This document shows positions 4,178 through 60,048 of a stretch of DNA of 64,000 bases, in pieces (the first letter of the stretch is position 1; every line of letters starts with the position of its first letter). The position numbers and the translations under genes were made by a program. Origin of the DNA: a virus; IMG/VR virus record IMGVR_UViG_3300020162_002681, positions 64,001 through 128,000 of that record. One strand, written 5' to 3'. The notes beneath the pieces were generated by a model. It was not told the DNA's origin. It did not search any database and was given only the letters and a program-made list of their open reading frames with translations.

Positions 4178-4183
4178 AACATC

Positions 4184-4315
4184 ATGAAACACTTTGCAGA
4201 ATTTGAGAACATTTATCAAACTGGATTGAAAAATCTCCTGACAAACAACACAGAACCTGCTGTGAAGAAATACATCAGAAAGAAGAAAGAACAGGCAGAG
4301 ACAGAAAAAGAATAA
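4184..4315 (+). CDS. 43-aa micro-protein beginning MKHFAEF (not in the ORF track)
   Basis: ATG 4184 to TAA 4315, 6 nt after the FN3 gene stop: MKHFAEFENIYQTGLKNLLTNNTEPAVKKYIRKKKEQAETEKE. Confidence 0.65.
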   Translation: MKHFAEFENIYQTGLKNLLTNNTEPAVKKYIRKKKEQAETEKE

Positions 4316-4498: not shown

Positions 4499-6040
4499 CT
4501 ATTGTGCTGGCGGCGCTCCCTCTTCAGGAGGATATGCTTCGGCTCCACCTCCTTCTGGTGGGGTTGGGGGCATCTGCATCTGCTGTAACTGTGCCTGTAG
4601 CTGTACAACTTGTGTTTGGTCTTGTAGCTCCTTCTGTATTTGGGCTTTGAGGGCATCTTCAGCTTTTTTCTCTTTCTCAGTTTCGTCGAGAGAGGGCAGT
4701 CCAAGATTTTTGTAGATGAGGTTAAGAACTTGGACGTTATTGGTGTCAATGATACCACTTGCCATGAGCGAAGTGATGGTGCTGAGACGACCATTTACAG
4801 TAGCTTGGTCTTCCTCTACATCGAATACAAACTCGCCCCAATCTTCGCTGAACCAGCTTGAAGGGAAGTTATCGTGAAGCAAGCCACGAATCATCTTGTG
4901 AATAATTTCGTGCTTGAGAGTTGTTGTCAGTGCAAAAATGGTTGAGTCAAAGGTCATCTTGAAATTCTGACCAAAGCCGTTATTGCCTAAATTTGTCGTG
5001 CCAGAGCCACTGTTAACATCAAAGATGCCTGAAGGTATAGCGAAACTGGATTGAATGCCTCTGTCGATGTATTCTAGTGCCTTGAAATGATTGTCGCTAG
5101 TGTTTTGTATTTGAATGCGTTGCAGGTCTACATCACTATCGGTGACAATAAACCCACGTTTTTGTATATCTTTCAATTGGTAACTGAGCGCGATTTGCTT
5201 TGTCACCTGCATAGGCTTTTTAGTTTTTTCATCGATTTTTACTTTGCCCTGAGCATCCACTAAGGTTGTTGTACCATTGGCAGGGGTTTTTGCCCATAAC
5301 AGACCTTCGCTGTCATTTTTGATGCGGAGAGCTAGGTGTGTGAGTACCACGCGCTTTAATTTGTAATACGGCAAAGCTGAAACCCCGTCTCCCACACCCC
5401 ATACAGCCGTTTTATCGAATGTAGCTCCGCTATTATTTACGATGTGCAAGCATTTGGAATAAGGTATCTTTACTTGCTTTCCAGAACCATTATCATATAA
5501 AATCCACTCAATTTTCCCAGAACTTTTAGATGATTTACCAAAAGATATGATTTGGTCTGGATTTAAGACGTTTAAATTTGCAATTCGCCACTGCCCCCTG
5601 TATCCTCGCAACTTAGATGATTTGGTAAATTCTACTACAGCCACCCCATGTAAAATAACTGAACTAAAAATTTTAAATATTGTTTGTTTGAAGCTTTTAG
5701 ATAAAGTTTTTAAGTTACTATTAACAAAAGCCTCTATTTCTTTCTTGGGATGTGAATATTCTCCGAAACTGCTGGCGCACCTCAAAGCCTTAAAAGCTAA
5801 ACACTGACTGACTATGGGGTCTTTCGCAGCCATGATGGATAAGTCCTTAATGGCGGGACGCTCGACCTCCTGTGGGTGGTTTATCTCAGCAAAAGCTAAT
5901 CCTGTGAGCGCCGCGATTTCTGTGCTATACATCCCTTGGACGGAGGCATTGAGGGGCGTAGGAGTGCCAGCAAAAAGTAACTCGTTATCAAGTTCTGCAA
6001 GATTAAGTTCTAACTGGTTGACTTCTTGGAAAAGAGGCAT
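4499..6040 (-). CDS. Portal protein (Mu gp29/DUF935-like)
   Basis: 513 aa; DPIVSQCL, ILHGVAVVEF and WGVGDG motifs; acidic, Pro-rich C-terminal tail typical of portals. Confidence 0.8.
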   Translation of the reverse strand: MPLFQEVNQLELNLAELDNELLFAGTPTPLNASVQGMYSTEIAALTGLAFAEINHPQEVERPAIKDLSIMAAKDPIVSQCLAFKALRCASSFGEYSHPKKEIEAFVNSNLKTLSKSFKQTIFKIFSSVILHGVAVVEFTKSSKLRGYRGQWRIANLNVLNPDQIISFGKSSKSSGKIEWILYDNGSGKQVKIPYSKCLHIVNNSGATFDKTAVWGVGDGVSALPYYKLKRVVLTHLALRIKNDSEGLLWAKTPANGTTTLVDAQGKVKIDEKTKKPMQVTKQIALSYQLKDIQKRGFIVTDSDVDLQRIQIQNTSDNHFKALEYIDRGIQSSFAIPSGIFDVNSGSGTTNLGNNGFGQNFKMTFDSTIFALTTTLKHEIIHKMIRGLLHDNFPSSWFSEDWGEFVFDVEEDQATVNGRLSTITSLMASGIIDTNNVQVLNLIYKNLGLPSLDETEKEKKAEDALKAQIQKELQDQTQVVQLQAQLQQMQMPPTPPEGGGAEAYPPEEGAPPAQ

Positions 6041-6067
6041 ATCTATAGTGAATTTTATCGATTAACC

Positions 6068-6805
6068 TCATTGTACCTTATTAGACATATAATTACGCTT
6101 CTCTTCATCGGTAGCATTTCTCCATCCAGACCATTTAGGGTCATTAGATGCAATTCTGGCAGACACAGTTTTAGGAAATACATTTTCCGCTTCTGCTGCA
6201 AATTTTCTTGCCGCATAGTATTTCCCATCGACTATAATAGCTACACACATAGGATGTTTTTCTCCACTACGAGAGGCGCTTAATCTAGCTTTAGCTTCTT
6301 TTGTACTGTGAGCAGCCGCAATCTTAGCTTTGGTCGCCTCTGTATGATGCTTCCCGTATAAGTGGTGATTCACTCCTCCATTTGCCGCTCTAAATTTTTC
6401 CGTACTTTCAGGTCTACTACGTCCCGCCGCAATCTTAGCCTTATGCTCTTCACTTTTAGGTTTGCCTTTAGTTGCAGCACTTATCTTTGCTCGGTGTTCT
6501 TCGGTAATGGCAACTCCTTTACACCCAAAGCCACCAAGACATATATTATAAGTATCTGGGCGACTAACAAACTCTTCAGTGACCATGTTGGCTTCCGCTT
6601 CATAAGCATCTTCAGCGCGACTAAATTCAGCTAGTGTAGTTCTAGTGAATTTATCTTTACCATACTTTTTCATGGCTAACTGCAAACCATCTCCACTACC
6701 GAGATAATGCCTAGATTTAGAGGTATTTTGAAGCTTATGAACCCCCACATAAATCTTGCCATTCACCAAATTTTCAGTACGATACAATATCCAAGTCTCA
6801 GCCAT
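6068..6805 (-). CDS. Free-standing GIY-YIG (Seg-like) homing endonuclease with NUMOD3 repeats
   Basis: ILYRTENLVNGKIYVGVH...YLGSG...YNI catalytic domain; repeated (H/K)(T/S)EEHKAKI motifs. Confidence 0.9.
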   Translation of the reverse strand: MAETWILYRTENLVNGKIYVGVHKLQNTSKSRHYLGSGDGLQLAMKKYGKDKFTRTTLAEFSRAEDAYEAEANMVTEEFVSRPDTYNICLGGFGCKGVAITEEHRAKISAATKGKPKSEEHKAKIAAGRSRPESTEKFRAANGGVNHHLYGKHHTEATKAKIAAAHSTKEAKARLSASRSGEKHPMCVAIIVDGKYYAARKFAAEAENVFPKTVSARIASNDPKWSGWRNATDEEKRNYMSNKVQ

Positions 6806-6859
6806 TGCATATATCCCTTTTTAATGTATAATTAAACTATAACACATTGTGAGTACAAA

Positions 6860-7006
6860 ATGCGTCCTGATAAATCAAAACGGCTGAATGCGAAATTATC
6901 CGTAAAAAGACATGAAAAATTGGCAAAATATGCTGAGTCACAAGATAAAGATATGACATCAGTGATAGAGTGTTGGATTGATAGTTTACCTGAAGTACTA
7001 GAGTAA
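6860..7006 (+). CDS. Small ribbon-helix-helix (CopG-like) protein of cyanobacterial type (not in the ORF track)
   Basis: MRPDKSKRLNAKLSVKRHEKLAKYAESQDKDMTSVIECWIDSLPEVLE; beta-strand plus two helices; divergent from the GIY-YIG gene. Confidence 0.75.
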   Translation: MRPDKSKRLNAKLSVKRHEKLAKYAESQDKDMTSVIECWIDSLPEVLE

Positions 7007-7009
7007 ATA

Positions 7010-7756
7010 ATGCCTGATTTCACTTTTCCAGTAGTCGAGGGACATACTTTTCTTGCGCCGAGGAATTTTGTAGGAAAACCATTCTCTACGCTATTTATTG
7101 CTGATGATAATGATGCCCACTATCGCTTGAATGGCACGTATGACAAGCACTTTGGGTTGTATATATTAACAAACATTATAGGTGCAAAAACCGACTACAG
7201 ACCCAGCATCAACCTAATTAATGCAACTGGCACTGAAACAAAGCTAAAAGGTGCAGCAACCCCGACAATATTCAAAGAAAAGATAAACAGGCGTGAATAC
7301 GGCAAAAAAAATGATGTACACCCCACTCTCGGCAATCGAAATCTCGCCTTCAATAAAATTTACTACAGAGAATTTCTAATCCCCAAATTTGACCCACGCT
7401 ATTCTCTGGTTGTAGATAGCAAATTCATCACCAACACAATTCAAAAGCCAGCCGACCAGTTTACTGACCTTGGAGCAAGTCCTAGCAGCGTCTTTGAGCC
7501 ATTTGCAAGAGGTAGCTTAGTAAAGTATTCCAATCAGTACTGGAGATGCCTACAACCCACAAAAGCCTACCCTAGCAGTGAAAATACAGATTGGCAGCAA
7601 CTGCCGCAGCAACAATCGGTGTTTACGGCTGATATTTACTCGATTTTTGGCAGTAACGTGCAATTTTTACAAACTTACAGTGAAGACCGAAATTTTCGAC
7701 CAGAGCAGCAAGATACCTCTCTGGTTGCATATAATGTTTCATGTTTTTATGGTTAG
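7010..7756 (+). CDS. Hypothetical protein with a small carbohydrate-binding (CBM5/12-like) module
   Basis: FARGSLVKYSNQYWRCLQPTKAYPSSENTDWQQL matches the G..V.Y....Y.C.......P....W pattern. Confidence 0.55.
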   Translation: MPDFTFPVVEGHTFLAPRNFVGKPFSTLFIADDNDAHYRLNGTYDKHFGLYILTNIIGAKTDYRPSINLINATGTETKLKGAATPTIFKEKINRREYGKKNDVHPTLGNRNLAFNKIYYREFLIPKFDPRYSLVVDSKFITNTIQKPADQFTDLGASPSSVFEPFARGSLVKYSNQYWRCLQPTKAYPSSENTDWQQLPQQQSVFTADIYSIFGSNVQFLQTYSEDRNFRPEQQDTSLVAYNVSCFYG

Positions 7757-8025: not shown

Positions 8026-8439
8026 ATGTCTAAATGCTCAACACTACGATTTAAAATTTATTCGCGAGACTACGACAAACTCCGAAAGCACACCGACAAC
8101 CTTAATACAAATCCTGCTACACAAGCTCGTTTGTGGGTACAGCAGCAAATTAATAGATTGCCCGATGAAGTTGAAGAACGTGACCCAGACTTTAAACTGG
8201 AGCATCTTGAGTCTGCTCTACAACACTGGGGATTTATTAAAATAGATGCTAATCAATGTGCTCCTGAATACTGGTTTTCTAAGGTACTTGATAGGCAATT
8301 AACTGTTGTAGAGCTTAATGATGGAGTTTGGCTTTCTTATACTCAAGGAAGAGACTTAATACCTAATTACCACGCTTTTCCACATATTTTGCGACGTAGA
8401 GTGAGTTTATTGATGTCAACTCACACTATTAGACCATAA
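8026..8439 (+). CDS. Hypothetical protein, possible N-terminal RHH DNA-binding domain
   Basis: Likely start MSKCSTLRFKIYSRDYDKLRKH... (ATG 8026) within track ORF 8008..8439. Confidence 0.5.
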   Translation: MSKCSTLRFKIYSRDYDKLRKHTDNLNTNPATQARLWVQQQINRLPDEVEERDPDFKLEHLESALQHWGFIKIDANQCAPEYWFSKVLDRQLTVVELNDGVWLSYTQGRDLIPNYHAFPHILRRRVSLLMSTHTIRP

Positions 8440-8476
8440 TATGAGTCTTAAGACAGATATATACGCATATAGTATG

Positions 8477-8485
8477 TGTTATATT
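8477..8485 (+). promoter_or_regulatory. Extended -10 promoter (TGnTATATT) for the tRNA cluster
   Basis: TGTTATATT ends 5 nt before the first tRNA. Confidence 0.45.
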
Positions 8486-8490
8486 AACAA

Positions 8491-8571
8491 ATGAGGTACA
8501 TTAGCGACAGTCAGGCTTAAGTGGTTCATACCCACTCACAACAGTCAGTGCAATTCTGACACCTCACCCCA
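8491..8571 (+). tRNA. tRNA-Met (CAT), atypical and initiator-like, CCA encoded
   Basis: Acceptor ATGAGGT/ACCTCAC with 1:72 mismatch; anticodon stem AGTGG/CCACT, loop TTCATAC; T-stem GTCAG/CTGAC; ends CCA. Confidence 0.7.
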
Positions 8572-8575
8572 ATTT

Positions 8576-8658
8576 GGAAGGTTGAACATAGGCACGTTAA
8601 GCTCTTTGCTAAAGAGTCGAGGGTAATACCTCTGTAGATTCGACTTCTACACCTTCCG
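8576..8658 (+). tRNA. trnS: tRNA-Ser (GCT)
   Basis: Acceptor GGAAGGT/ACCTTCC; loop TTGCTAA; long variable arm GAGG/CCTC; T-arm GTAGA-TTCGACT-TCTAC. Confidence 0.85.
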
Positions 8659-8661
8659 TTT

Positions 8662-8742
8662 GGAAGAATGCGCTCATGGGGGCAAACGGTCTTGAAAACC
8701 GCGCTAGGGTCACACCTAACAGTTCGATTCTGTATTTTTCCT
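8662..8742 (+). tRNA. trnS: tRNA-Ser (TGA)
   Basis: Acceptor GGAAGAA/TTTTTCC; CGGT-CTTGAAA-ACCG; variable arm TAGG/CCTA; T-loop TTCGATT. Confidence 0.85.
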
Positions 8743-8761
8743 TTGGCAATCGATTGCCAAA
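8742..8761. repeat. Perfect 20-bp palindrome TTTGGCAATCGATTGCCAAA
   Basis: Equals its own reverse complement; directly follows tRNA-Ser(TGA). Confidence 0.9.
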
Positions 8762-8770
8762 AACAAAACA

Positions 8771-8990
8771 CCCTTCCGAGTGTCTCGGATTGCTTAGTGA
8801 AAGTGGCAGCTTCAACGCTGCGTCTAGCCGCATAAAGGCTAGGCTACCACAGGTGGAGACGGAAGCTAATATTGGTGTTCATAACAATAAGAGTTGCATT
8901 ACGTGAGTATGCAAAGTTGGGGCTGGTAATACTACAGGCTGTCAGAAGGTTCCAAGAACGGTTGCAAAACAGTTGAGAGCTGACCTCTTA
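8771..8990 (+). ncRNA. Candidate structured ncRNA inside the tRNA cluster
   Basis: Dense nested stems: TCCGAG/CTCGGA; GTGG...CCAC enclosing GCAGC/GCTGC and CTAGCC/GGCTAG; TATTG/CAATA; TTGCAT/ATGCAA; a GCAA-capped stem; no credible ORF. Confidence 0.5.
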
Positions 8991-12376: not shown

Positions 12377-12766
12377 CTAGAAATTTACAAAGTGCTGAAA
12401 ATTGCCACTGAAACCGCCGTATTGCCCTTGGAGAGCCGCCTGTTGACTACGCCAAGCACTCGCAGGAATTTTTTTACGTGCTACACCTGCTGCATCAATG
12501 AAGCTATTTTCACCTAATGGTCTTTGAGGGTTTCTAGGTGCTTGTTGCTTTGCCATGCCTCTACCCACGCTGGCGCTAGCAATTGCTTCCTGTCTGTTCA
12601 GGCTAGGAGGGGAGTTCTGCACCACTGCTGACCTCTGATTTCTCGTCAACGCTAGAGGTGAGGAATTAATAGGAGTCTCACCCCAAGTTGGAACTTCAGG
12701 TGCTTTTGGTTTGAAACTTTGACGAAGCTGATTTGCTTTTTGCCCGATAGTGGAGGTAGGTAGCAT
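12377..12766 (-). CDS. Disordered basic protein ending in QHFVNF (putative internal head cargo)
   Basis: 129 aa, P/Q/R/A-rich; the HFxNF motif is at the C-terminus. Confidence 0.65.
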   Translation of the reverse strand: MLPTSTIGQKANQLRQSFKPKAPEVPTWGETPINSSPLALTRNQRSAVVQNSPPSLNRQEAIASASVGRGMAKQQAPRNPQRPLGENSFIDAAGVARKKIPASAWRSQQAALQGQYGGFSGNFQHFVNF

Positions 12767-17745: not shown

Positions 17746-19359
17746 CTAACCAGCATCAGTAGTTGCAATCTTACCACGCTTCTTCACTACACCAGAACTA
17801 TCTTTCCTTGCCGAAAAAATTACGATATCTGATTTACCATTACCTGAAAGAACAGGAGTCGCCCCACTAGGAAACAGAATAGTGTTATCGAAAGCTACTA
17901 CTCCTGTCTGCTGTACCAATTCGACTATAAGTGCCTTAGTTTGGTTATTGGAAAGCGTAGCGGTGAAATTAATGTTCGTTACTGTGTTGCTGATATCTGT
18001 TAGTGGGCATTTTAGGATTAAGTAGTCATAATCTGCGTCAAGGTCAATCGTATAGTTGGTCGGTGAGCTAATAGTGACGGTGTTGGTTTTAATTTGGTCA
18101 CCAAGAGCCGTTATGACTTCATCGGCTAGTTTGTCCAGTCCGATACTTCCATCGGGCAGTGCAGGGTCAAAAACTATCCACCTACCAGTCGTCGGGTTGG
18201 TGTTGGGAATCAGAACTGTATCGCCATTGTCACTTGCAGTAGATGCAGCGTCATATTTGTAAGGTCTGTTGACCGATTCAACCAAGCGTACTTGTCCAGA
18301 TTTGTACTGAACAGAGTTGAGTGACTTGAGAGCCGCTATGTTGTCTACTGGCGCATCCCAGAAAAGAAGGTCTTGTAAAAGTGCGTAATTGACCAGCTTA
18401 GGGTAGATACTAATGAAACTCTGTGCCGATACCCCATCTAGAAGCTGTGAAGATGGTGTGACCTCGATTACTACTGCTGAGCCATCGGGAATACCTTTGT
18501 TGAGCGCAATATCAAGTGTTGGGTACTCTTGCACCACTCCGAGGTTGTCGATGCCAGTAGTGTCCAAGGCGAAGGAACTGAGACTGATGTAGCCAATGAT
18601 TTTAACACCAAAGACGAGCCTGATAGCTGGGTCAGAACTGTATTCGCTTAGGTTAAGTCGCAAGCCAGTCAGAGTGCCGCCAGTGTCGTTCACAATCCAG
18701 TATTTGATAGGCACTGGTATGGAATTGATATTTTCGAGTGGGGCAACGAGTAATGTATCTTGGTCAGCGCTGATTACGTCTATTTCGGCTAGGGCGGTCG
18801 TTTCATAGAGGCTAGCTTCTCTTGTCTTGAACCACCTGCCGCTTGAGTGCGTGAGGATTGTTACGTTATCAATCTGAACTACCGAACCGCTAACAAATTC
18901 GTAGCAAAAACCATTTCCGTTGAGCAGTACCCTGAAGCCTGTTAATAGACCTGTGAGCGCACTGATGTCTGCGGGATTAGAGTAGCTAGTAGGACTGTTT
19001 AAAGTGGCGTTAGCAGTGATTACTACGTCACTGGGAGTGATTGGAGTAACGTAGTCATCTTCAAAGTGCGAGAACTTGTAGATGATTCGTGAAGAAGCGT
19101 AGTCATTGGTGGTGGATACGCTGATTAGGGTTTCATGGATGTCTTCGTATGAGAGGGCAGTGAAATTTTCAGATTCGAGGGTAATGCTGCCGCTTGCGCC
19201 TACGACAAGAGATTTTACAGGGCTTTCAGTAGTATACCCAGCTCTGTTTCTTTTTACAACCCAGAAAAAATATGTGTCTGCATCGATTGACCCACCAGAT
19301 GTGGTTGTGATGGTGGGAGCTACAAGTGTTTTGCTGGAGGCGTAGATTGTTTTAGACAT
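17746..19359 (-). CDS. Tail fibre/baseplate-associated protein
   Basis: YDAASTASDNGDTVL...GRW tailspike-head-like motif; C-terminal FPSGATPVLSGNGKSDI domain also seen in 53664..55508. Confidence 0.65.
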   Translation of the reverse strand: MSKTIYASSKTLVAPTITTTSGGSIDADTYFFWVVKRNRAGYTTESPVKSLVVGASGSITLESENFTALSYEDIHETLISVSTTNDYASSRIIYKFSHFEDDYVTPITPSDVVITANATLNSPTSYSNPADISALTGLLTGFRVLLNGNGFCYEFVSGSVVQIDNVTILTHSSGRWFKTREASLYETTALAEIDVISADQDTLLVAPLENINSIPVPIKYWIVNDTGGTLTGLRLNLSEYSSDPAIRLVFGVKIIGYISLSSFALDTTGIDNLGVVQEYPTLDIALNKGIPDGSAVVIEVTPSSQLLDGVSAQSFISIYPKLVNYALLQDLLFWDAPVDNIAALKSLNSVQYKSGQVRLVESVNRPYKYDAASTASDNGDTVLIPNTNPTTGRWIVFDPALPDGSIGLDKLADEVITALGDQIKTNTVTISSPTNYTIDLDADYDYLILKCPLTDISNTVTNINFTATLSNNQTKALIVELVQQTGVVAFDNTILFPSGATPVLSGNGKSDIVIFSARKDSSGVVKKRGKIATTDAG

Positions 19360-19510
19360 TTCGAGCTAATTTCTCAGTTTCTTTTGTAATATATGCTAAC
19401 CAATCTCGACCTTCAGCCACTTTTAGTTGTGGGTACTCAGGCTTGAAGGACTCGGCACGTTCTAGCCAGTCTTGGTCTATTTTACAGAGGTTATTTATGG
19501 CTTTTGGCAT
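19352..19510 (-). CDS. 52-aa peptide containing the capsid-identical segment GRDWLAYI
   Basis: ATG 19510, 4 nt after the upstream stop; stop overlaps the next start; MPKAINNLCKIDQDWLERAESFKPEYPQLKVAEGRDWLAYITKETEKLARNV. Confidence 0.65.
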   Translation of the reverse strand: MPKAINNLCKIDQDWLERAESFKPEYPQLKVAEGRDWLAYITKETEKLARNV

Positions 19511-19514
19511 ATTG

Positions 19515-20078
19515 TTAGTAACGAATACGGGCTTTAGGCATTCTAACACCTGTAGATACCATGTCAACAGGTTCTTCCATCATTCCACCCATTCCTTTGT
19601 ATGAGTCAGTTCTAAATCCTAAGTATCCTGTTGGACTTGCAGCTTCATCGGTTGTTTTGCGAATATCTGTGAAGCCTTTAGTGTCTGGGGTTTTCACGTA
19701 ATCTCTTTTTAGTGGGTCAGGTGCATAGAGGTCTTTATATTCGTACCCTTTAGGCTTACGCATTAGTTGTGGTAATCCAGCCTCTTTTCTTAGTCTGGTT
19801 CTATTGCCGCCTCGGTCGTTATACCACTCATCCTTTAAAAGAGTATTTCCACCATCTCTAGTATCGAAACTATAAGGCTTTAATGACTCTCTAGCTACTC
19901 TAAGTGTATTTGCAGGTTTAGTCTGGCTTCCAAACGGTTTTAGTTTCTCATTTAGAGTGTCTTCTACTCCCTTACCGTACTTTTTTGTATATATTTCGTC
20001 AGCTTTACCTAATTGAGCATTTCTTTTCAGTTGTTTGTTTTGCTGCTTGATTACACCAAAATCTGCGAAGTGTTGCAT
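19515..20078 (-). CDS. Basic protein starting MQHFADF (putative internal head cargo)
   Basis: 187 aa, K/R-rich, N-terminal HFxxF motif. Confidence 0.7.
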   Translation of the reverse strand: MQHFADFGVIKQQNKQLKRNAQLGKADEIYTKKYGKGVEDTLNEKLKPFGSQTKPANTLRVARESLKPYSFDTRDGGNTLLKDEWYNDRGGNRTRLRKEAGLPQLMRKPKGYEYKDLYAPDPLKRDYVKTPDTKGFTDIRKTTDEAASPTGYLGFRTDSYKGMGGMMEEPVDMVSTGVRMPKARIRY

Positions 20079-35295: not shown

Positions 35296-36112
35296 CTATG
35301 ATAGCAGAGATTGGAGAGCTTCTTGCCTAGCGGTATAAGCAAGTTCTGGTGTATCAAACGTACCAATATAGATTTTTTGTTTGTTTACGACTAATCGAGC
35401 TTCATACTTGTCGTATTTACCTTTTTTATACACACCAGACGGTAGCTTTCGGGATTTTTTGGGGCTGGTCAGTTGAGCCTTATCTAATTCTTCTTTTACA
35501 GAGCTATCTTTGTCCCAGTAAAATTTTTCAGCTAAGATTCTAACATAACAAGCTTCTTTCTCTGTTTCGTAAGACCCCAGATAGATTGATTTTTTTATTT
35601 ACCTTAATACTTGTTTCCCACCTTGCACCTTCGGATTTCCTATAGGCACTATCTCCCCTCTTTCTTCTCGATTCTATCATAAGCGTCTTATTTTCTTCTG
35701 AATGAGTTTTTCCGTAAAAGGGATTATTCTTACCTAATGTTTGCTGTTTCTTTTTTATTTTTCTGTGAGGCTCATCTTCAGATATTTTACCAAAAGCTCT
35801 AGTAGACCTAGTTTGGTTGTAGCAAAGTTTCCAATCTGTAATTGAATCTAGGTAAGTTTGTTCAATATCTAATAAATCCTCATTGCTCTTATTTTCACAA
35901 TTTTCTAAAACTTCTATATTAAAAATAGAATCCCCATGCAGATTGAAAACTCTTTGTAAATGCTTATTATTGTGTGTCTGCTTCCTTAATTTGTAAAAAT
36001 GCTCCCTAATCCTAATTCTAATGTTTTGGCTACTGCCAATGTAGAAGAATTTAGAGTCTGTATTGGTTATTTTGTAAATACCTTTAATATTAGGTATATT
36101 GTTTAAATCCAT
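35296..36112 (-). pseudogene. GIY-YIG-NUMOD3-AP2x2 homing endonuclease split by a frameshift in an A7 run (35590-35596)
   Basis: GIYKITN...FYIGSS N-domain; removing one A restores KVNKKSIYLGSYETEKEA... and a second AP2 ...YIGTFDTPELAYTAR to TAG 35296. Confidence 0.85.
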
Positions 36113-36120
36113 AATTTTTT

Positions 36121-36192
36121 TACTGGTTAATCTGGAAAATTAAAAAGTGGCAGGGTTCCAGAAACCTTTTCCCGTAGCTATCGGTATCCACA
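36121..36192 (-). ncRNA. Structured leader upstream of the GIY-YIG gene (possible pseudoknot or antisense switch)
   Basis: Minus strand GTGG[CCG-ATAGCTA-CGG][GGTT-TCTGG-AACC]CCAC, then TCCAGA and ACCAGT complementary to the TCTGG loop, just before the ATG. Confidence 0.45.
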
Positions 36193-36207
36193 TACCTATA
36201 ATAACAA

Positions 36208-36244
36208 AAATCCCTCAACCAACAATCTGTCGGAAGAGGGATTT
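36208..36244 (-). terminator. Rho-independent terminator after the major capsid gene
   Basis: AAATCCCTC/GAGGGATTT stem with inner stem, followed by TTGTT on the minus strand. Confidence 0.7.
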
Positions 36245-36268: not shown

Positions 36269-37504
36269 TTAGGAGATGATTGTTTGACCCCTAGAACTAT
36301 CGAAAGTCAGGAAGTCTGCAAGAGAAATAGACGACGCAATATTTACATTTTTTGCAACCTTACGTGCCATTCCGCATTTCGCGATAGTCGGACACGCTAT
36401 GAGCTGCATCGAGACCGACTCAGAAATATCTAAAATTGGGGTCTTAGACCATGTTCTTTGGAAAATTCCTGCCCGTTGATTGTTCTCGATAGTTCCGCCA
36501 AGAATACGGTTAAATTGTCCTTGACGAGACAAGAATACAACAGTACCTTCATCCAACAAACGAGTCGGTGCTGAAGCGCCATTCGCATCACTAAGCTCAA
36601 CTTGTCCATCTTCAAGAACAAACTTAGGCAAGAAACGACGACTCATTACTTCGTTAAGTTGGTCAATAGAAGGTGTGCCAGTGATTACGTTACCAATAAC
36701 GTTAGCAGCAACTACAGCTTCTTTAACAGACTTACAACGAGCAATATTCAAAAGCAAGCGCTCAGAGATTGCAATTTCGTCAGCAGGGAAACCATTAGTG
36801 TACTTGTACTGAGTGTGCATATCTGCAAGGTCTTGCAGAGGGTCAGCAGTTTCGTGCTGAGTCCAATCACGCTTCAATGAGTCAACAGTTTCAGTCCCAG
36901 CAAAGTCGGTTTGGTAGATTGGAAATGGAAAGTGGTTGGCGCGAATGCCGATTGCCTTTGTCCAGTCCAAGTCTGCGCGTAGACCTGTACGTTGGTCAGT
37001 GTACTGCATCTTACCAGTCTGCAATGTCTGCCAAGCCAAGTAGTCGATAAGGTTAATGTGACCGCGAACAAGCGAAGCAAGAGTACCAAAGATATTCTTG
37101 GCGAGTTCGTTATCTTGACCGAGTTGAACCTTACCTTCCGAAACTTGAATGTTCTGAATGGTGATGTTGCGAATCTTAGCAAGCTCAGAAACCTCAGCCA
37201 TTCTCCATTGGGTATCTTCATCCCAGTGGTAAGCAATCGCAGCTTTGTAGTTACGAGCTTGAATTTTGCTGAAGTCTCCTTTTTTAGCTTCAGGATAATC
37301 TTGTCCTGTAGCTACGAGAGACGCAATGGGGTCAACAGTTGTCGAGATGTAAGCAAGCCAGTCACGACCAGTCTTCTCAACCAAAGGAACGTAAGTATTG
37401 AGAACCTTAGAGCGTTCCTTCAACTGACGGAGGGTGTTGTTTACAACGAGGTCGGCAGCTTTAGCAGCGCGTCCTTCTTTTAAGAAATTTTCAATGTATG
37501 CCAT
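36269..37504 (-). CDS. Major capsid protein (lambda gpE-like family, HK97 fold)
   Basis: 411 aa; YLAWQTLQTGKMQY, W...ADPLQDL and EGTVVFL motifs; order protease-scaffold-decoration-MCP. Confidence 0.88.
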   Translation of the reverse strand: MAYIENFLKEGRAAKAADLVVNNTLRQLKERSKVLNTYVPLVEKTGRDWLAYISTTVDPIASLVATGQDYPEAKKGDFSKIQARNYKAAIAYHWDEDTQWRMAEVSELAKIRNITIQNIQVSEGKVQLGQDNELAKNIFGTLASLVRGHINLIDYLAWQTLQTGKMQYTDQRTGLRADLDWTKAIGIRANHFPFPIYQTDFAGTETVDSLKRDWTQHETADPLQDLADMHTQYKYTNGFPADEIAISERLLLNIARCKSVKEAVVAANVIGNVITGTPSIDQLNEVMSRRFLPKFVLEDGQVELSDANGASAPTRLLDEGTVVFLSRQGQFNRILGGTIENNQRAGIFQRTWSKTPILDISESVSMQLIACPTIAKCGMARKVAKNVNIASSISLADFLTFDSSRGQTIIS

Positions 37505-37522: not shown

Positions 37523-38434
37523 TTATTTGTTGAAGTATGGTTTAATGTGCAAGTGCAGACCAAACAAACGCTTCAATTGGCGGTCAACGTAGGGCAAGTT
37601 ATTTTGGTAGACTCCTGCAATCTCAGAGATAACTGCAAAGTCCCGTTTAGGTTCGCCAGTCAAATCTACAGGGTCAGGATATAAGCCAAGAACTTCAGCA
37701 ACATCGATACCAACAATAGAGTTGATAGGTAGAGCTTGAGCAGCATTAGCAGCCAAAGTTACAACACGAACACCAGTGGTAGCATTTTCAGCACCAATTG
37801 CAAGAATCGTACCAAGAGGAGTGAGGTTGTTACCTAAGAAACCAGCTTCAGTGGTTTGAACTACGACTTGACCAGCAGCTCCTGTTGTTGCGAAGTAAAT
37901 ATCGTAACTATCGTCAGCGTAAATGGTAGCAGCAGCCGTCGAAGAGACTTGAGCGATTGTGATGCCAGCAGCCAACAGAGCAGCAGCATTAGCAGTGATA
38001 AAGTCAGCAACAGCACCAGCACCAGTTTGAGTAGCACCAACAGTAGCCGAGTAGGTCACACCAGCGATACGAGCAGTGATAACATCAGAAGTTGCAAAAG
38101 TACCGATGAACTTAACTAGAGCGTAGCAATGCTTTGCGTATAGAACGTCGCCCACTTTAAATTGAGAGCAAGGAGACTTGAGAGAAACAGAAGCCGAGTT
38201 AGTTGCGGTTGCAGCAGCAAGGCGAGTGCGAGGCAAGAAACGTGCGACTCTAGAGCCAGAGACACCAGTAGTAGCGATAAATGAACCTTCGGGAGCTACA
38301 GTCTTCCCTTCGGCATTAAGTAGGATATCGGCGCTATTAATCTGAACGGCATCGATTGCAACTTTCTTAGCTGCGGCGTTGAAGATAATAGCTCTACCGT
38401 TTTTGGTAATTGCTTGAGTTGTTAAATAAGTCAT
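37523..38434 (-). CDS. Head decoration protein
   Basis: Between scaffold and MCP; EGKTVAPEGSFI and GVYQNNLP motifs; A/T/G-rich insertion. Confidence 0.7.
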   Translation of the reverse strand: MTYLTTQAITKNGRAIIFNAAAKKVAIDAVQINSADILLNAEGKTVAPEGSFIATTGVSGSRVARFLPRTRLAAATATNSASVSLKSPCSQFKVGDVLYAKHCYALVKFIGTFATSDVITARIAGVTYSATVGATQTGAGAVADFITANAAALLAAGITIAQVSSTAAATIYADDSYDIYFATTGAAGQVVVQTTEAGFLGNNLTPLGTILAIGAENATTGVRVVTLAANAAQALPINSIVGIDVAEVLGLYPDPVDLTGEPKRDFAVISEIAGVYQNNLPYVDRQLKRLFGLHLHIKPYFNK

Positions 38435-38449
38435 TGTGTTTTATGCTCC

Positions 38450-39331
38450 TTATAGTCCGAAATCCAGACCCATAGCAATCAAGTCACCTTTGGCGGCTTC
38501 TTCAAGGCTAGATGAGAAATTAGCAGTTGCAACTTCTTCAGCACTAACACTGAAATCGGTGAACTGAGTAACATTAGCAATATTACGGAGCAAGCTATAA
38601 GCGAACTCCGACATATTAAGTTGTTCTTGCAAGTCACGCGCACCGTTAGTTTGAGCGATACCACTAAACTGAGCTACTCGTTGGCGAGGGTCAGAGAAGT
38701 TACCGATAAGAGCTTCCTTCATTGCTGGGGTAATAACACCATCAACAACGTCTTGGCTAATACGTGCGTTCAAGTCGCTCAACGCTTGGGAAAGTTGTGC
38801 TTCAAAGTTAGCTTGTGCAAAGTTAGCTTCAAGAGCTTCTTTTTCTGCGCGTAGCTTTTGAATTTCACTAACTACAGTCTTATTAAAGTTAGCTTGGATT
38901 GCGGGGTTATAAGCAGCCGCATAATCTGCTCCTTCTTGTGCCATATCTGGTTCTACGCCTCCTTCAGCGTCATCCGTATCATATTGAGCTTCTAGAGCTT
39001 GTTTATCCTGTTCTAAGACTCCATCAGCAACTTCGATAATTTGTTCAATATCTTCATCGTTAGCGTCAGGGAAAGCTCCAATCATTGCTTCGAGAATATT
39101 GACATCATCAACAATGTTTTCACCGCTAATGTAGCCAGTTACATCTTCTTCACTCAGTCCAGTAGATTGAACGAGAGCTTGAATACCAGCATCAATGTCG
39201 CCTTCATATTGGGCTTCAATTAAGTCTAGAAGTAATTCGCCAAAAGCATTGGTTGGATTGAGTTCGGTCATTTCCTGACCTGCCCCTTCCATACCAGCGT
39301 CCTGAGCGCCTAAATCTTGTTCTTCATCCAT
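38450..39331 (-). CDS. Capsid scaffolding protein with four ANF sites
   Basis: Very acidic coiled coil; DGVITPAM motif as in Mu-like protease/scaffold C-termini. Confidence 0.75.
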   Translation of the reverse strand: MDEEQDLGAQDAGMEGAGQEMTELNPTNAFGELLLDLIEAQYEGDIDAGIQALVQSTGLSEEDVTGYISGENIVDDVNILEAMIGAFPDANDEDIEQIIEVADGVLEQDKQALEAQYDTDDAEGGVEPDMAQEGADYAAAYNPAIQANFNKTVVSEIQKLRAEKEALEANFAQANFEAQLSQALSDLNARISQDVVDGVITPAMKEALIGNFSDPRQRVAQFSGIAQTNGARDLQEQLNMSEFAYSLLRNIANVTQFTDFSVSAEEVATANFSSSLEEAAKGDLIAMGLDFGL

Positions 39332-41531: not shown

Positions 41532-42860
41532 CTATTGTAATGCCTCCCAGTTAGCACGTTTTAATCCAGTCCTAAGTACTGACCTAACATCTCCATTGAG
41601 AACTGAATCAATAATTCTATTCTTGGAGTCATCATCGATAAACCTATTCTGAGCTTTGTTTAGCAGTCCTCGGCGCAGTTGCTTATCCTTAATACCATCA
41701 AGAGCAGCTAACTTCTGAGCTTCAAACACTTCACTCTGTTCATCTGCGGCTTTCTTTTTGTTGTAAATACCATAAGCTGCACTACCGATAGCTAGGCTAG
41801 GGGTAATGAAAGGGTCGAAGAAGTTGGCAGTCTTACTTGTACCTCTAGAGTATTTAGCAGTACCTTTAGGTTTAGCTTGTTGTTGTGCAGGAGTTAGTCT
41901 ATCAAGGGGATTGTCTGTAACACTAGCTAACAAAGGATTACCAGTAATATTAGCAGCCTCACGAATCAGATTATCTGCGTGGTACTGAGGACTGTCGAAA
42001 TAATTAGCCGCAAAGTCTTGGGCATTCTTATCTTTGAGGCTATTTACCTTGTAAGCATCCAACGCTCTTTGCTTATTGAGCTTAGATAACAAACCGTACC
42101 CAGCTACTAAGGTTCCCCCAACAGCAGCTAAAGGCAGAGCTTTTTCTTTTTTAACGAAGAAAGGATTGCGAACACCAATTTTAGGGAATGCAAAATTCGC
42201 TGGAGCCACTAAAGGCGCAGCACTGAAGAAATTGTAAGGTACTTTAGGCTGAGTAGATTGTTGTTGTGCTTGTCTTTGTTCCAATAGCAGATTCCTCTTT
42301 GCAATAATTTCAGCCACCTTATCTCGATGACCTTGTGCCTGTGCTTGCTTTTCTTGTTCGACTTCTTTGTTTTTGTTATTTTGGTATATGGCTGTACCTG
42401 CGGCGATAGGGGCAAGGGTCAGTCCTCCTAAAGTTCCGTAGATGGCATTCTCACCAAAGCCTCTATCAATCAACTTATTGGCGACATGATTGACGACAGG
42501 AGTGACCAGAGGAATTCCACCACCACCCGAAAATTTGTCCCGCAGTCTTTGAGTTTCTGCATCGGCAAGCGCAGCTCTCTTAGCAGCTACTCTTTGACCT
42601 TGAGCACTACCTATCTCTGCTTGTGTGGGAGGGACTACAGGAGGCGCAGGAGGATTTAATTCTTGCAACCTCTTGTTATATACATCTTTACCCTCGGCTT
42701 GCAATCTTTTTTGTGCGAGAAACTTCTCAGCCTCAGTCATTGCAGAAGGTACTGGGTTTGCAGTAGCTTGCAACCTTCTCTTCTGCCTCATCCCAGCATT
42801 ATAAATGAGAGCAGACTTCCCGCCTCTAGGATTTTGTCTCACAGCAAATTCGCTTAGCAT
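41532..42860 (-). CDS. Modular putative internal-head protein with three hydrophobic units
   Basis: MLSEF, APANF and KTANFFDP each open a unit containing a G/A-rich hydrophobic helix followed by a basic stretch. Confidence 0.6.
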   Translation of the reverse strand: MLSEFAVRQNPRGGKSALIYNAGMRQKRRLQATANPVPSAMTEAEKFLAQKRLQAEGKDVYNKRLQELNPPAPPVVPPTQAEIGSAQGQRVAAKRAALADAETQRLRDKFSGGGGIPLVTPVVNHVANKLIDRGFGENAIYGTLGGLTLAPIAAGTAIYQNNKNKEVEQEKQAQAQGHRDKVAEIIAKRNLLLEQRQAQQQSTQPKVPYNFFSAAPLVAPANFAFPKIGVRNPFFVKKEKALPLAAVGGTLVAGYGLLSKLNKQRALDAYKVNSLKDKNAQDFAANYFDSPQYHADNLIREAANITGNPLLASVTDNPLDRLTPAQQQAKPKGTAKYSRGTSKTANFFDPFITPSLAIGSAAYGIYNKKKAADEQSEVFEAQKLAALDGIKDKQLRRGLLNKAQNRFIDDDSKNRIIDSVLNGDVRSVLRTGLKRANWEALQ

Positions 42861-43876
42861 TTAGCTGCACTTCCTCTTACATACTTTTTGACAGTACCTT
42901 TCGATAGGTTAAACAGAGCCAACTTATTAGTCCCCCGCTTGTATGTGGTTTGTTGTTGTAACTGAGGGATAGTCATCCCACTCTCAGTCCCTCCTTGCAA
43001 CTGTGCTTGGGTCTGTGCCGCTTGGTCTTGAGGAGTCATTACCCCAGCCTGTGCTTGCTGATTCATTTGTTGCATCAACTGAGTCAAACCGAGTAGTTCG
43101 ATAATCTTGACGCTGAATCCATTCAATTGTGAGTAAATCAACTGCAATAGAACTTCGGGGCTGTCAATGTTAATCGCATCATTGTCGTAAGCGTTCTTGA
43201 GTAGGAGCCAAAGCTTTTGGCAGACATCATTGTACTCTTCTTGCAAGTCATCGATTTGTTGGTCACTAGCATCAAGCTCGTCCCAAGTTACAGCATTCGA
43301 GGAGTCTGGAATACCTGTAAAGTTAGCAGTCATTGCTTTGCTTACTTTCTTGTGGAAAAGCCCCATGTTAGGGATTGCTGGAATAGGTACTAGAGACAGC
43401 TCCATAATACGATGTTCATTTGGGTCAAGGTTTAATCCCATGCTGACGCTCTTAACACCACTACGCAATGCTTCGATTCCTTTGGCTGCTGCAACTTTAA
43501 CACCAGACAAGAACATTCCAAGCTTACCAACTAGATGCTGAGAATTTTGGTTAGGTAAATCTTCTTCTGTGATAACTTTGGTGTAAGCGCGTCCACTAAT
43601 GCTTCCGATAGTATTTGGAATATCTTTCTTGTGGTCTGCACAAACGGGAACGACAGTACCGCTATCAATAGCTCGATTAGTATGCTCAACGATTGTATTT
43701 AAACGTTCGGCACTAAAATCGTGTTCAATATCTGTAGAGTCGGTGAACTTACCCTCAGTGGCAACGAGTGCGGTATATTCACTTTTAATTGGAGTGCCAG
43801 ATACCAACACCTGCCCCAACTCAAAGTTGGCTCTTGATGCTGGGGCTTTAAAATAGGCGATGTTGGTTTTCTTCAT
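42854..43876 (-). CDS. Prohead protease (Mu gpI-like)
   Basis: ATEGKF..., VPVCADH, KSVSMG and ELSLVPIPAIPNM motifs; ANF on both sides of the catalytic domain. Confidence 0.8.
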   Translation of the reverse strand: MKKTNIAYFKAPASRANFELGQVLVSGTPIKSEYTALVATEGKFTDSTDIEHDFSAERLNTIVEHTNRAIDSGTVVPVCADHKKDIPNTIGSISGRAYTKVITEEDLPNQNSQHLVGKLGMFLSGVKVAAAKGIEALRSGVKSVSMGLNLDPNEHRIMELSLVPIPAIPNMGLFHKKVSKAMTANFTGIPDSSNAVTWDELDASDQQIDDLQEEYNDVCQKLWLLLKNAYDNDAINIDSPEVLLQLIYSQLNGFSVKIIELLGLTQLMQQMNQQAQAGVMTPQDQAAQTQAQLQGGTESGMTIPQLQQQTTYKRGTNKLALFNLSKGTVKKYVRGSAAKC

Positions 43877-45143: not shown

Positions 45144-45386
45144 ATGAACGACAAATTACTATTTAACCAGCAAGTCGGAGAGAAGCTGCGTAGCTTACGC
45201 AAGGCTAGGAATAAGTCTCAGGCTAGTGTTGCGGCAGATTTTGCTTTCGGGCAAGATGTTGTTAGTGAAATTGAGCGTGGGGTTAAAACAATTAGTGCAT
45301 TTGAGCTGGTAGCTTTCAGTGCATATTACGAAAAACCGATTACCTACTTCTTTATGAACTCGGCGCTACCCACTAAAAATTCTTAA
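45144..45386 (+). CDS. XRE/Cro-C1 helix-turn-helix regulator
   Basis: VGEKLRSLRKARNKSQASVA...VSEIERG...YFF. Confidence 0.9.
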   Translation: MNDKLLFNQQVGEKLRSLRKARNKSQASVAADFAFGQDVVSEIERGVKTISAFELVAFSAYYEKPITYFFMNSALPTKNS

Positions 45387-45957
45387 AATGTTTGAACGAA
45401 CTAGACATCGGTGCTATTTGAGGGGAACCTTTTCCACGTAATTTAGACAATACTCCGCCAGCACTTTTTATAGCTGCTAAACCTATCTTTGGCGCATCAT
45501 GAAAGTACATCTTAGGTCTTGTCACTATTTGCTTTTTAGCCGTCTCTAGTGCAGCTTTACCAGATTCCTGCATAACCTCTCTTGGCGTTAATTTACGTCC
45601 AAGCTGTTTACTTTTATCCGCAACTCCTCGAACATTTCGATAGGTTGCCGCCATACCATCAGCAATCGGATTTCCCCAGCCTTCACTATCACGCAACACA
45701 TGACCACCAGTTTCAAGTGCTGCCTTAGCAACTCGTTGTGGCAGCTTATCGCCAGCATTGGCTTGGTAAGTGTCTTTAGCTGTCTTTGCCCATTTAGGGA
45801 AGTTAGGGGCATTCATGGCTACGGGAAGTGCACTCATGTCACCAAAACTAGGATGATAACTATATACCGCATTTCTAGCTGCATCAAAAGCTGAAGGAAT
45901 ATCAACGTGTTGCAGAGCTTGAAGCCCCTCAAACATAAAGTCAGCTTGTCTGGTCAT
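45373..45957 (-). CDS. Basic protein with N-terminal QADF and C-terminal KHFKNF (putative head cargo)
   Basis: MTRQADF..., ends SSFKHFKNF*. Confidence 0.65.
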   Translation of the reverse strand: MTRQADFMFEGLQALQHVDIPSAFDAARNAVYSYHPSFGDMSALPVAMNAPNFPKWAKTAKDTYQANAGDKLPQRVAKAALETGGHVLRDSEGWGNPIADGMAATYRNVRGVADKSKQLGRKLTPREVMQESGKAALETAKKQIVTRPKMYFHDAPKIGLAAIKSAGGVLSKLRGKGSPQIAPMSSSFKHFKNF

Positions 45958-58359: not shown

Positions 58360-59077
58360 TCCAATCGAGCAAAAGTTAAAATCACTACGCAACTTGAATA
58401 GTGGTCAGCCCGAATTACAAAAGCTAACTATTCACAAACTCAGCAAGACAAGCTGGGTCAACTGGAATCATATTAGGCAAGCGTATATTCTTGGCAAGCG
58501 TATTGAAGAGTTCGACGAGGAGACGGGGCATACACGAATTTGGTCTGAGAGCTACAACTTAGAGGAACTGGCACGAGAGTTTGGTGTTGGTGTCAGTCAG
58601 CTAACGAAGAAATCTGCAATTGAAGGTTGGGGTGGATTGCGCGATAGCTATTTGGCGCGAGTACAGGAGGAGGCGCTTGGTACTGAGCTTGGCTATTTCA
58701 CTAATGAGGAGAGCGAGACTGAGGCAAACAGCTTGGCTATCATTCGTAAGGGTATGAAGCTGATTAACTTGGGACTTGAGCAAGAGTACGGAGACTTACT
58801 TGAGGCTGTGGACGCTGATGGTGATGTGGACTTGCGTGAATATAGTAAGGTCAACTTGAAGGCTTTAGCTGAGGGAATCAAGGGGTTGAAAGCACTGCAT
58901 GAACTACATGGCAAGATAATGGAAAATGCCCCTAAAACTAATCAGGAGCTGCTAGAACAATTGAATCGCAGTAAGACGGTGGAGAGACTAAAGAATCCTA
59001 AAGAACGTGAGAAACTGCAAAAGGAGCTACAAAAGAAATTGCAACTCCTTAGTCAGATTGAAGAGGATGAGGACTAA
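58352..59077 (+). CDS. terS: Terminase small subunit-like protein
   Basis: NWNHIRQAYILG...LEELAREFGV...KKSAIEGW N-terminal HTH plus helical oligomerisation region; near terL. Confidence 0.65.
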   Translation: MSSPIEQKLKSLRNLNSGQPELQKLTIHKLSKTSWVNWNHIRQAYILGKRIEEFDEETGHTRIWSESYNLEELAREFGVGVSQLTKKSAIEGWGGLRDSYLARVQEEALGTELGYFTNEESETEANSLAIIRKGMKLINLGLEQEYGDLLEAVDADGDVDLREYSKVNLKALAEGIKGLKALHELHGKIMENAPKTNQELLEQLNRSKTVERLKNPKEREKLQKELQKKLQLLSQIEEDED

Positions 59078-60048
59078 GCTAAGTTGTCCATGTCTTGATA
59101 TGCTTTACGTCTCTTGTACATGGTGTTGCTAACCCTTGCGGCGTTCTCACCAGCAAGACCTAAACTTCCGCCGACAACTCCACCAGCAGCAGTGTTACCA
59201 AGAACTTTGCCAAGCCGACCTAATCCTGTAGTGTTAGCTTTTTCTTCTTCTGTCTCACCAATGCCAGCTCCTCTAGCCAGCCCAGCAGCAGCCCCAAGCC
59301 CTGCGCCAATCTGTACACCTCTAGTTGCACCAAATGCTTGAGCCGTATCCTTAAGTGCGCCTCCAGCAGCTTTAGCGTTGTTTAAGTAAGGCTGAGCTTT
59401 GTTTAGCATTGAAGGTAATGGGTTTGTAAAACCGAAGTTAGCGAAGTGTTGCATGTTTTTGTGTTGTGTGAAATTGATTCTACTATTGTAGCCTGTCATA
59501 AATGGCTTGCCTAATCTCTTAGCCGCATATAGGTTCTTTACTTCAGCTTCGTCATACTTATCTTTAATATTCTCAATTGCTGCATTATCGATAAGCCTAG
59601 CTTCGCGACGCTTTGGGTTGGGGTGTACTATATTTCCTTCGTGTATATCGACATGACCAAGATTTTGCTCACGTAGACGATTTTGGATACGACCAACTTG
59701 GCTCCCCAGTTTATACTGCTCCTTTGGTGCTATACCTTTTAATTTGTTAGGTAGAGGTTGACCAGCGTAATCTTGCGTGTAGGAGGTCATATTGCCACGT
59801 TCACGGTAGTTTTGCACTGGAGGCACTAGTCCTGTCGTTGTAGCTGCTTTACCTGCATTTGTATATTCTTTTCTACTGGCTTTTATGGCTGCTGCTCTGA
59901 CTTGAGGTGACTCAGGGTAGTAAGTACCGTCAGGGAGAATGTTGTCGATGCGTACCTTGTTTGTGGCAGGGAAATGTAGTACACGCTTATCTGGTGTGAG
60001 AAGAAGTGCTTTGGCGTTACGGATACGAGCGAAGGATGAGATGTTCAT
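59074..60048 (-). CDS. Protein-kinase-like domain fused via MQHFANF to a Gly-zipper hairpin module
   Basis: KEY, HVDIHEGNIV and RLIDNA kinase-fold motifs; internal MQHFANF at ATG 59454; C-terminal module homologous to those in 39422..41074. Confidence 0.7.
   Translation of the reverse strand: MNISSFARIRNAKALLLTPDKRVLHFPATNKVRIDNILPDGTYYPESPQVRAAAIKASRKEYTNAGKAATTTGLVPPVQNYRERGNMTSYTQDYAGQPLPNKLKGIAPKEQYKLGSQVGRIQNRLREQNLGHVDIHEGNIVHPNPKRREARLIDNAAIENIKDKYDEAEVKNLYAAKRLGKPFMTGYNSRINFTQHKNMQHFANFGFTNPLPSMLNKAQPYLNNAKAAGGALKDTAQAFGATRGVQIGAGLGAAAGLARGAGIGETEEEKANTTGLGRLGKVLGNTAAGGVVGGSLGLAGENAARVSNTMYKRRKAYQDMDNLA

Follow-up and report, generated by a model that had tools for sequence, protein, structure and literature searches.

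Why does a small open reading frame (ORF) inside a viral tail-fibre gene array encode an exact copy of a segment of the same genome's major capsid protein (MCP)? The question is raised by a 52-amino-acid (aa) peptide encoded at 19352-19510 on the minus strand of a 64,000-nucleotide (nt) stretch, called the window throughout, which comprises bases 64001-128000 of the complete 146,232-bp IMG/VR virus record IMGVR_UViG_3300020162_002681 with direct terminal repeats. The genome is that of a freshwater cyanophage, itself a Pseudanabaena siphophage, and its nearest named relatives are the Pseudanabaena siphophages Pam2 (ON014754) and PA-SR01 (MT234670), with about 80% DNA identity for the fibre gene and 78% protein identity for the MCP. 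Translation of the peptide ORF yields EYPQLKVAEGRDWLAYIT, and residues 38-54 of the MCP carry TYVPLVEKTGRDWLAYIS. The eight residues in common, GRDWLAYI, were located at 19388-19411 in the peptide gene and at 37346-37369 in the MCP gene, exactly where a first-pass annotation made from the letters alone had placed them. The 52-aa ORF is very probably a real gene that was derived from the MCP. The evidence for this, and the functions that such a gene might have, are considered below.

Searching 5.8 billion proteins, three homologues of the peptide (P0003-P0005) were found, all of them 52 aa long, with the same start and 75-83% identity. The contigs that encode them measure 139 kb (ENA), 20 kb (JGI) and 586 nt (L078). 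Pairwise ratios of nonsynonymous to synonymous substitution rates (dN/dS) of 0.18-0.34 indicated purifying selection over the whole peptide at the protein level, and within the codons of the motif itself synonymous changes were observed (CGA/AGA, TTA/TTG, GCA/GCG). RDWLAYIT is invariant in all four peptides, position 34 being G in three and S in one, and no other invariant stretch of the aligned peptides is as long as the one that includes the motif block. Other conserved features, INN.C.IDQ.WLE and EYPQL, are specific to the peptide and have no counterpart in the MCP. At all loci carrying it, the peptide gene is packed tightly against its neighbours. As the four 52-aa homologues share start and length, show this dN/dS range and synonymous changes in the motif, and are so tightly packed, the ORF is a real gene under selection. 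A lack of conservation, or homologues that lose the motif, had been named in the first-pass annotation as signs of a chance match; neither was observed.

The peptide family comprised four members after all searches. A tblastn search for homologues in 50,697 phage records returned noise only, and searches for related peptide loci in metagenomes and for longer proteins found none; the ESM Atlas gave nothing usable. Degenerate-DNA motif scans of viral and metagenome contigs recovered only MCPs and unrelated chance contexts. The peptide had no family match in Pfam, PHROGs, NCBIfam or PADLOC. The word DWL occurs twice in it (residues 14-16 and 36-38; IDQDWLERA and GRDWLAYIT), 22 residues apart, a hint that the peptide may be built of two half-units resembling each other.

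In a greedy set of 74 non-overlapping window ORFs (20,301 aa) GRDWLAYI was the sole 8-mer common to two proteins, and a shared 8-mer appeared in 2.6% of 1000 residue shuffles. Four shared 7-mers were observed, including two inside GRDWLAYI, versus 0.66 expected in the shuffles; the others were VRLTVGK and TNAGKAA (protein pairs 12814-17709/53664-55508 and 46066-47706/59074-60048). Taken alone, the rarity of the 8-mer is modest evidence, especially in a scan of many windows, across which an event of 2.6% per window is common. A coincidence would make the peptide an unrelated small protein, or an upstream ORF coupling translation to the fibre gene, with the 8-mer arisen by chance. In agreement with this, [RS]DW[LF]AYIT was encountered in about 20 unrelated contexts in large collections, and the stop of the peptide gene overlaps the start of the fibre gene. 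Against it stands the position of the match on the most conserved 8-residue window of the MCP (rank 1 of 404; 28 MCP homologues, down to 36% identity) and its extension to the ninth residue of the consensus. Among MCPs of at least 53% identity, GRDWLAY continues with I, V or L in every case but one, an MCP at about 54% with NRQWLAYIT, and most of the distant MCPs of the 28-homologue alignment read GRDWLAYIT, with a ninth residue equal to that of the peptide. The exact 9-mer is specific to MCPs at least 53% identical; below about 40% only a loose pattern was found. Position 9 of the motif is T in every peptide and S or G in the MCPs of the same genomes, and no co-variation was seen there, the motif proper being invariant on either side.

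Profile comparisons were significant window-wide. The MCP-family hidden Markov model (HMM), run against 921 six-frame ORFs of the window, had the peptide as its only non-self match (E 4.4e-5; next E 1.3), and in the reverse search the MCP was the best non-self match of the peptide HMM (E 0.0015). Using hhalign with the alignments of both families, peptide residues 17-51 were aligned to MCP residues 30-63 (E 4.1e-8, probability 95%), and the register was unchanged against the 120-sequence MCP family profile (E 4.5e-4). When the nine motif residues were left out and the register was kept fixed, similarity was also found in the flanks, with z 3.6 and p 0.0008 versus the 53-60% MCP clade and z 2.2 and p 0.02 versus the close MCP clade; controls for this test were column-permuted, and more than one test design was tried. 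The match between peptide and MCP is not chance. Coincidence, already disfavoured by the flanks and profiles, is further opposed by the purifying selection on the whole peptide and by two genomes in which coupling to a fibre gene does not occur, and we regard it as highly improbable.

At the DNA level, the codons of peptide and MCP differ at six of the eight motif positions, exactly as first reported. DNA identity of the motif to any MCP gene examined amounted to 15-22 of 24 nt, which is the level between distant MCP genes and is at saturation, and the flanks were at random level. A recent DNA copy from another MCP clade was considered and ruled out, the motif showing the identity expected for fixed amino acids and the flanks being random. 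As the motif DNA is no closer than between distant MCPs and the flanks are random, the shared residues are held by selection and were not recently copied, and the first-pass claim that the match is kept at the protein level was upheld. We read the similarity as real but old homology, with the peptide as a probable diverged, free-standing copy of MCP residues ~26-64. It is a fragment copy and not a whole HK97 fold, only residues 15-51 aligning, to MCP 28-63. No second MCP-like gene was found in the window genome, which holds one MCP and one peptide.

In order to place the motif within the capsid protein, the MCP was modelled. Sequence comparison of the 411-aa protein gave no Pfam match at E 0.01 or better in hmmscan and no relative in a sequence search of the PDB; for the PA-SR01 orthologue (78% identical) an HHpred match to PF03864, Phage major capsid protein E, was reported (PMC10286775). 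With the earlier 28-sequence alignment, residues 39-146 of the AlphaFold2 (AF2) model were below 50 in predicted local distance difference test (pLDDT), and the motif was not placeable. A 120-sequence alignment, drawn from a profile search of 1.84 billion representatives (203 matches), resulted in a model with pLDDT 83 and a predicted template modelling score (pTM) of 0.80. This model contains the N-arm, E-loop hairpin, spine helix and P and A domains of the HK97 fold, and the closest solved structures were the MCPs of Chi, P23-45, YSD1 and lambda (VIA-align Z 19-21). Helices 3-9, 11-29 and 33-38 of the N-arm are followed by strand 41-43, strand 48-55 (DWLAYIST), a tip at 56-76, return strands at 77-94 and the spine helix at 132-163. 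By the topology of the HK97 fold, strand 48-55 is read as the outgoing strand of the E-loop, and the segment, for which the first-pass annotation had proposed mapping on a model, thereby has a predicted place. In lambda, the two E-loop strands, the N-arm of the adjacent subunit and the N-terminus of gpD make up a four-stranded sheet (PMC5701804). According to the model, the peptide thus appears to copy a helix-turn-strand element with inter-subunit contacts in lambda-type capsids. The MCP of PA-SR01 migrates in gels at its unprocessed size (PMC10286775), and maturation therefore does not remove the motif.

Selection kept GRDWLAYIT exactly, the nine most conserved residues of the MCP family. 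Peptide and MCP are frozen in the same residues with diverged flanks and are probably produced simultaneously, which is most simply explained by one partner surface that both of them meet. We tentatively favour interface mimicry within capsid assembly, a possible explanation that we would not call probable. The peptide would be made late, alongside the structural proteins, and would offer the E-loop-base element of the MCP (end of the N-arm and first E-loop beta-strand) as a free ligand. It would then occupy the surface normally contacted by this element, candidates being the E-loop return strand, the N-arm of the neighbouring subunit and an auxiliary head protein, and would in this way cap or tune the contacts of capsid proteins at the E-loop base. 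Late co-expression with the MCP is plausible, because the peptide gene is set in a long co-directional tail/fibre gene array on the minus strand and overlaps the fibre start. As would be expected of a competitive mimic, a short motif is shared with an assembly protein of the phage: GRDWLAYI with its own MCP, GRDWLAYIT with the family consensus. The binding of the peptide, its partner and the consequence we infer from these observations.

A number of results weigh against such a role. In Pam2 and PA-SR01 the peptide is absent at the syntenic site and elsewhere, and in four complete or nearly complete (98-100%) IMG/VR relatives the MCP was the only match; all of these MCPs keep the motif. Six partial IMG/VR records of relatives likewise yielded the MCP only, with the motif kept. 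The peptide gene is accessory and dispensable across the clade, and six relatives with the motif in their MCP and no peptide indicate that capsid assembly is independent of it. The same six, by showing that the capsid does not require the peptide, weaken the first-pass proposal of a stand-in for the MCP strand at special vertices. Furthermore, the peptide gene is distant from the head genes, lying 17 kb from the MCP gene, and its constant neighbours are members of a paralogue family, the MQHFxxFG genes, and not head genes. Amphipathicity of the helix type (moment 1.59 at 100 degrees versus 0.21 at 170 degrees) was observed in the C-terminal half of the peptide, and the motif may therefore not be presented as a strand. 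Homology beyond the motif is seen solely in the fixed-register flank test; when gaps were allowed, the flanks were not significantly similar (p 0.09 and 0.14). Prediction of an MCP-peptide complex scored 0.00 in both runs and, the fold of the partner itself being uncertain, speaks neither for nor against binding.

A decoration or cement protein of the gpD kind was not indicated, given the missing family match, the 17 kb to the MCP gene and the absence from six relatives. The same holds for a tail fibre assembly chaperone: the peptide matched nothing in Pfam, PHROGs or NCBIfam and is not constantly paired with a fibre gene, downstream of which such chaperones are usually encoded. In two genomes it is encoded upstream of the fibre gene, in L005 other genes separate the two, and the fibre orthologues of Pam2 and PA-SR01 are not accompanied by a peptide.

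An MQHFxxFG gene, or what remains of one, immediately precedes the peptide gene in all four carrier genomes, and in two of them another MQHFxxFG gene directly follows the peptide in place of the fibre gene. As to what follows the peptide, the 586-nt contig L078 shows an MQHFxxFG gene and nothing further. Members of this family start with M[QK]HF[ATV]xFG..K.ANKQLKR and end with the conserved block AAS.TGYLGFR.D.YKG.GGMMEEP. They occur in one to four copies per genome between tail protein and fibre (four in Pam2, one in PA-SR01), and no match was found in Pfam, PHROGs, NCBIfam or PADLOC. Genes turn over frequently between the 896-aa tail protein and the fibre, a hot-spot in which homing endonucleases also occur, and in L005 endonuclease genes stand beside the peptide locus. 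An MCP-derived piece might have been co-opted here to bind or regulate the neighbouring MQHFxxFG proteins, their conserved N-terminal tag being one feature that it could recognise. The link to the MCP would then be historical or reflect a shared tag-binding surface, as the capsid interior might recognise the tag. Both the constant adjacency to these genes and the gain and loss of these paralogues at the locus would fit. As Pam2 and PA-SR01 possess MQHFxxFG genes without the peptide, and the paralogue family lacks a match in the databases searched, we consider this co-option rather unlikely. Position 7 is F both in the N-terminus of the MCP (MAYIENF) and in MQHFADF starts.

Counter-defence genes typically show a distribution like that of the peptide gene, which is patchy and accessory within a hypervariable locus, and for Pam2 an anti-CRISPR was predicted in the same locus (PMC9382816). 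Capsid proteins trigger CapRel, Thoeris and other defence systems (PMC13728456). The peptide might present the most conserved epitope of the MCP to a host capsid sensor and thereby block or titrate it; the copied block, as the least mutable part of the MCP, would be a logical target of such a sensor. No capsid sensor is known in Pseudanabaena, no such decoy was found in the literature searched, and no PADLOC or anti-defence family was matched. Gol, a capsid-derived peptide of T4 gp23, reportedly activates Lit instead of blocking it. By this analogy, a free epitope would be expected to trigger defence and not to protect from it. We therefore regard a decoy as quite unlikely. Of the capsid mimic proposed in the first-pass annotation, mimicry at the sequence level stands, carried by the motif and the profiles; decoy action on a host sensor found no support.

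The flanks of the peptide are closer to the MCPs of the 53-60% clade than to its own MCP, and in genome-wide searches the former scored 22-24 bits versus 14 bits for the own clade. A fragment with such a bias might act as a dominant negative that poisons the capsid assembly of co-infecting relatives with the conserved motif, and a satellite precedent exists in CpmB, which competes with the 80alpha scaffold (PMC5644958). Carrying the motif in its own MCP, the phage would poison itself unless timing or dosage protects it, and no such protection was found; we hold this to be very unlikely. Taken together, it is doubtful that the E-loop-base copy was kept as a decoy for a host immune sensor or as a dominant negative against the assembly of competing relatives. 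If true, either would represent a new class of peptides, derived from the capsid and used in counter-defence or competition, and gene fragmentation driven by homing endonucleases might be its source.

A hint to the origin of the peptide gene came from a relative. JGI contig Ga0400258_0031108 (1916 nt; L079:169-1818) contains a chimeric ORF of 169 aa. Its first part, about 100 residues of a GIY-YIG endonuclease with 72% DNA identity to window 35811-36213, continues in frame into MCP codons 12-78, which contain the motif and have 80% DNA identity. Next come a 46-aa ORF and then an MCP paralogue of 314 aa (34% identical), in which about 25 residues of the E-loop hairpin are missing, GRDWLAYI included. 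The chimera looks like a by-product of rearrangement, unlike the peptide gene, which stands alone, has the same length in all four genomes and is conserved there under selection. It indicates that endonuclease-driven rearrangement yields free 5' fragments of the MCP gene in this group, and such rearrangement is a plausible route to the peptide gene. The features of the window and of related genomes are compiled in Table 1.

Table 1. Location of the peptide gene, the capsid protein gene and further features; coordinates refer to the window unless another genome or contig is named.
Feature	Position	Strand	Remark
52-aa peptide gene (P0001)	19352..19510	-	ATG 4 nt past stop of upstream gene; last 8 nt overlap tail-fibre start
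GRDWLAYIT codons, peptide residues 34-42	19385..19411	-	block common to peptide and MCP family consensus
537-aa tail fibre, homologue of Pam2 gp43	17746..19359	-	ATG within last codons of peptide gene
187-aa MQHFxxFG paralogue family member	19515..20078	-	upstream neighbour of peptide gene
Promoter-like site (TTGACA, 16 nt, TG-n-TAGAAT)	19540..19567	-	about 30 nt upstream of peptide ATG; candidate
GIY-YIG homing endonuclease gene	35540..36112	-	directly downstream of MCP gene
MCP, 411 aa, HK97 fold, lambda gpE / Chi / P23-45 type	36269..37504	-	phrog_29 major head protein, E 4e-20
GRDWLAYI codons in MCP, residues 46-53	37346..37369	-	residues 48-53 in model strand 48-55
303-aa alanine-rich protein	37523..38434	-	
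Acidic scaffold-like protein	38450..39331		
Weak head maturation protease match	42854..43876	-	phrog_976, E 1.7e-4
MQHFxxFG genes, Pam2 (L001)	5616-6275, 6293-6895, 7070-7651, 8103-8825		
MQHFxxFG genes, L005	9451-9999, 10156-10716		
MQHFxxFG gene, L006	9515-9961		
MQHFxxFG gene, L078	267-584		
Carriers of the word [QK]HFxxF	12377-12766, 45373-45957, 59074-60048	-	
Carrier of the word [QK]HFxxF	4178-4312	+	

The promoter-like site matches 11 of 12 positions, has an extended -10 and lies within the 3' end of the upstream gene. The extended -10 is retained in three of the four peptide loci, one of them with a decayed upstream gene. In L078 a perfect TGTTATAAT was observed at the promoter-like position, despite the decay of the upstream gene there. 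The number of promoter-like sites in the peptide region was not above that in shuffles, so the site is a candidate only, and the phage-specific promoter word GTGTTAWAWT was not enriched. In the head region, the 303-aa protein without family match is encoded between the acidic scaffold-like protein and the MCP. It occupies the gene position of gpD in lambda and is therefore a candidate decoration or auxiliary head protein. For the head maturation protease only the weak match of Table 1 was obtained, and a Mu gpI-like protein was reported as ORF24 of PA-SR01 (PMC10286775). The word [QK]HFxxF was also observed elsewhere in the window: it stands at the extreme C-terminus of two proteins (QHFVNF and KHFKNF) and starts a 45-aa stop-to-stop frame, and MQHFANFG occurs inside a third protein at about residue 220.

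Small phage ORFs are mostly unexplained, and here a 52-aa ORF of this kind was traced to a defined structural element of a capsid protein. Nine residues frozen in both proteins provide the concrete hypothesis that the peptide and the E-loop base of the MCP meet the same partner. If this partner is a capsid component, the peptide would be a mimic that tunes the assembly of its own phage; if it is a host sensor or the capsid protein of a rival, a new kind of counter-defence or competition factor would result. In addition, pieces of essential genes might be turned into new small genes through rearrangements by homing endonucleases. The cultured phages Pam2, grown with Pseudanabaena mucicola Chao 1806, and PA-SR01, grown with KCZY-C8, both with the motif in their MCPs and without the peptide, represent a ready test bed.

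In the literature searched, we encountered no account of an MCP E-loop segment conserved as a free-standing copy, nor of a free-standing, phage-encoded capsid copy that blocks a defence. Mechanistically, the closest precedent is CpmB of SaPI1, a small protein competing with the 80alpha scaffold for a site on the capsid protein (PMC5644958). CpmB is encoded by a satellite and competes with the scaffold, whereas the peptide is encoded by the phage and copies the MCP itself; the competition by CpmB was demonstrated by cryo-electron microscopy and genetics, whereas the peptide is known here from its sequence. Lambda gpD offers a structural parallel, as there a short strand of a separate polypeptide joins the E-loop/N-arm sheet in a gpE-type capsid, and the MCP fold found here is of the same type (PMC5701804). 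gpD is a folded trimer, its gene lies next to that of the MCP, and it is needed for the lambda particle with the full genome (PMC5701804). The peptide, in contrast, has 52 aa, is encoded beside a fibre gene 17 kb off, is dispensable, and copies a strand of the MCP instead of adding a new one. The idea of a decoy is based on host defence systems that recognise a region or surface of the MCP. In the case of Gol and Lit, the sensed piece is reportedly part of the MCP and activates the defence. The same applies to CapRel SJ46 (PMC13728456). Endonuclease-linked partial gene copies, finally, are exemplified by the fusion of GIY-YIG endonuclease and MCP in L079, and an endonuclease homologous to that of the fusion abuts the MCP gene of the window.

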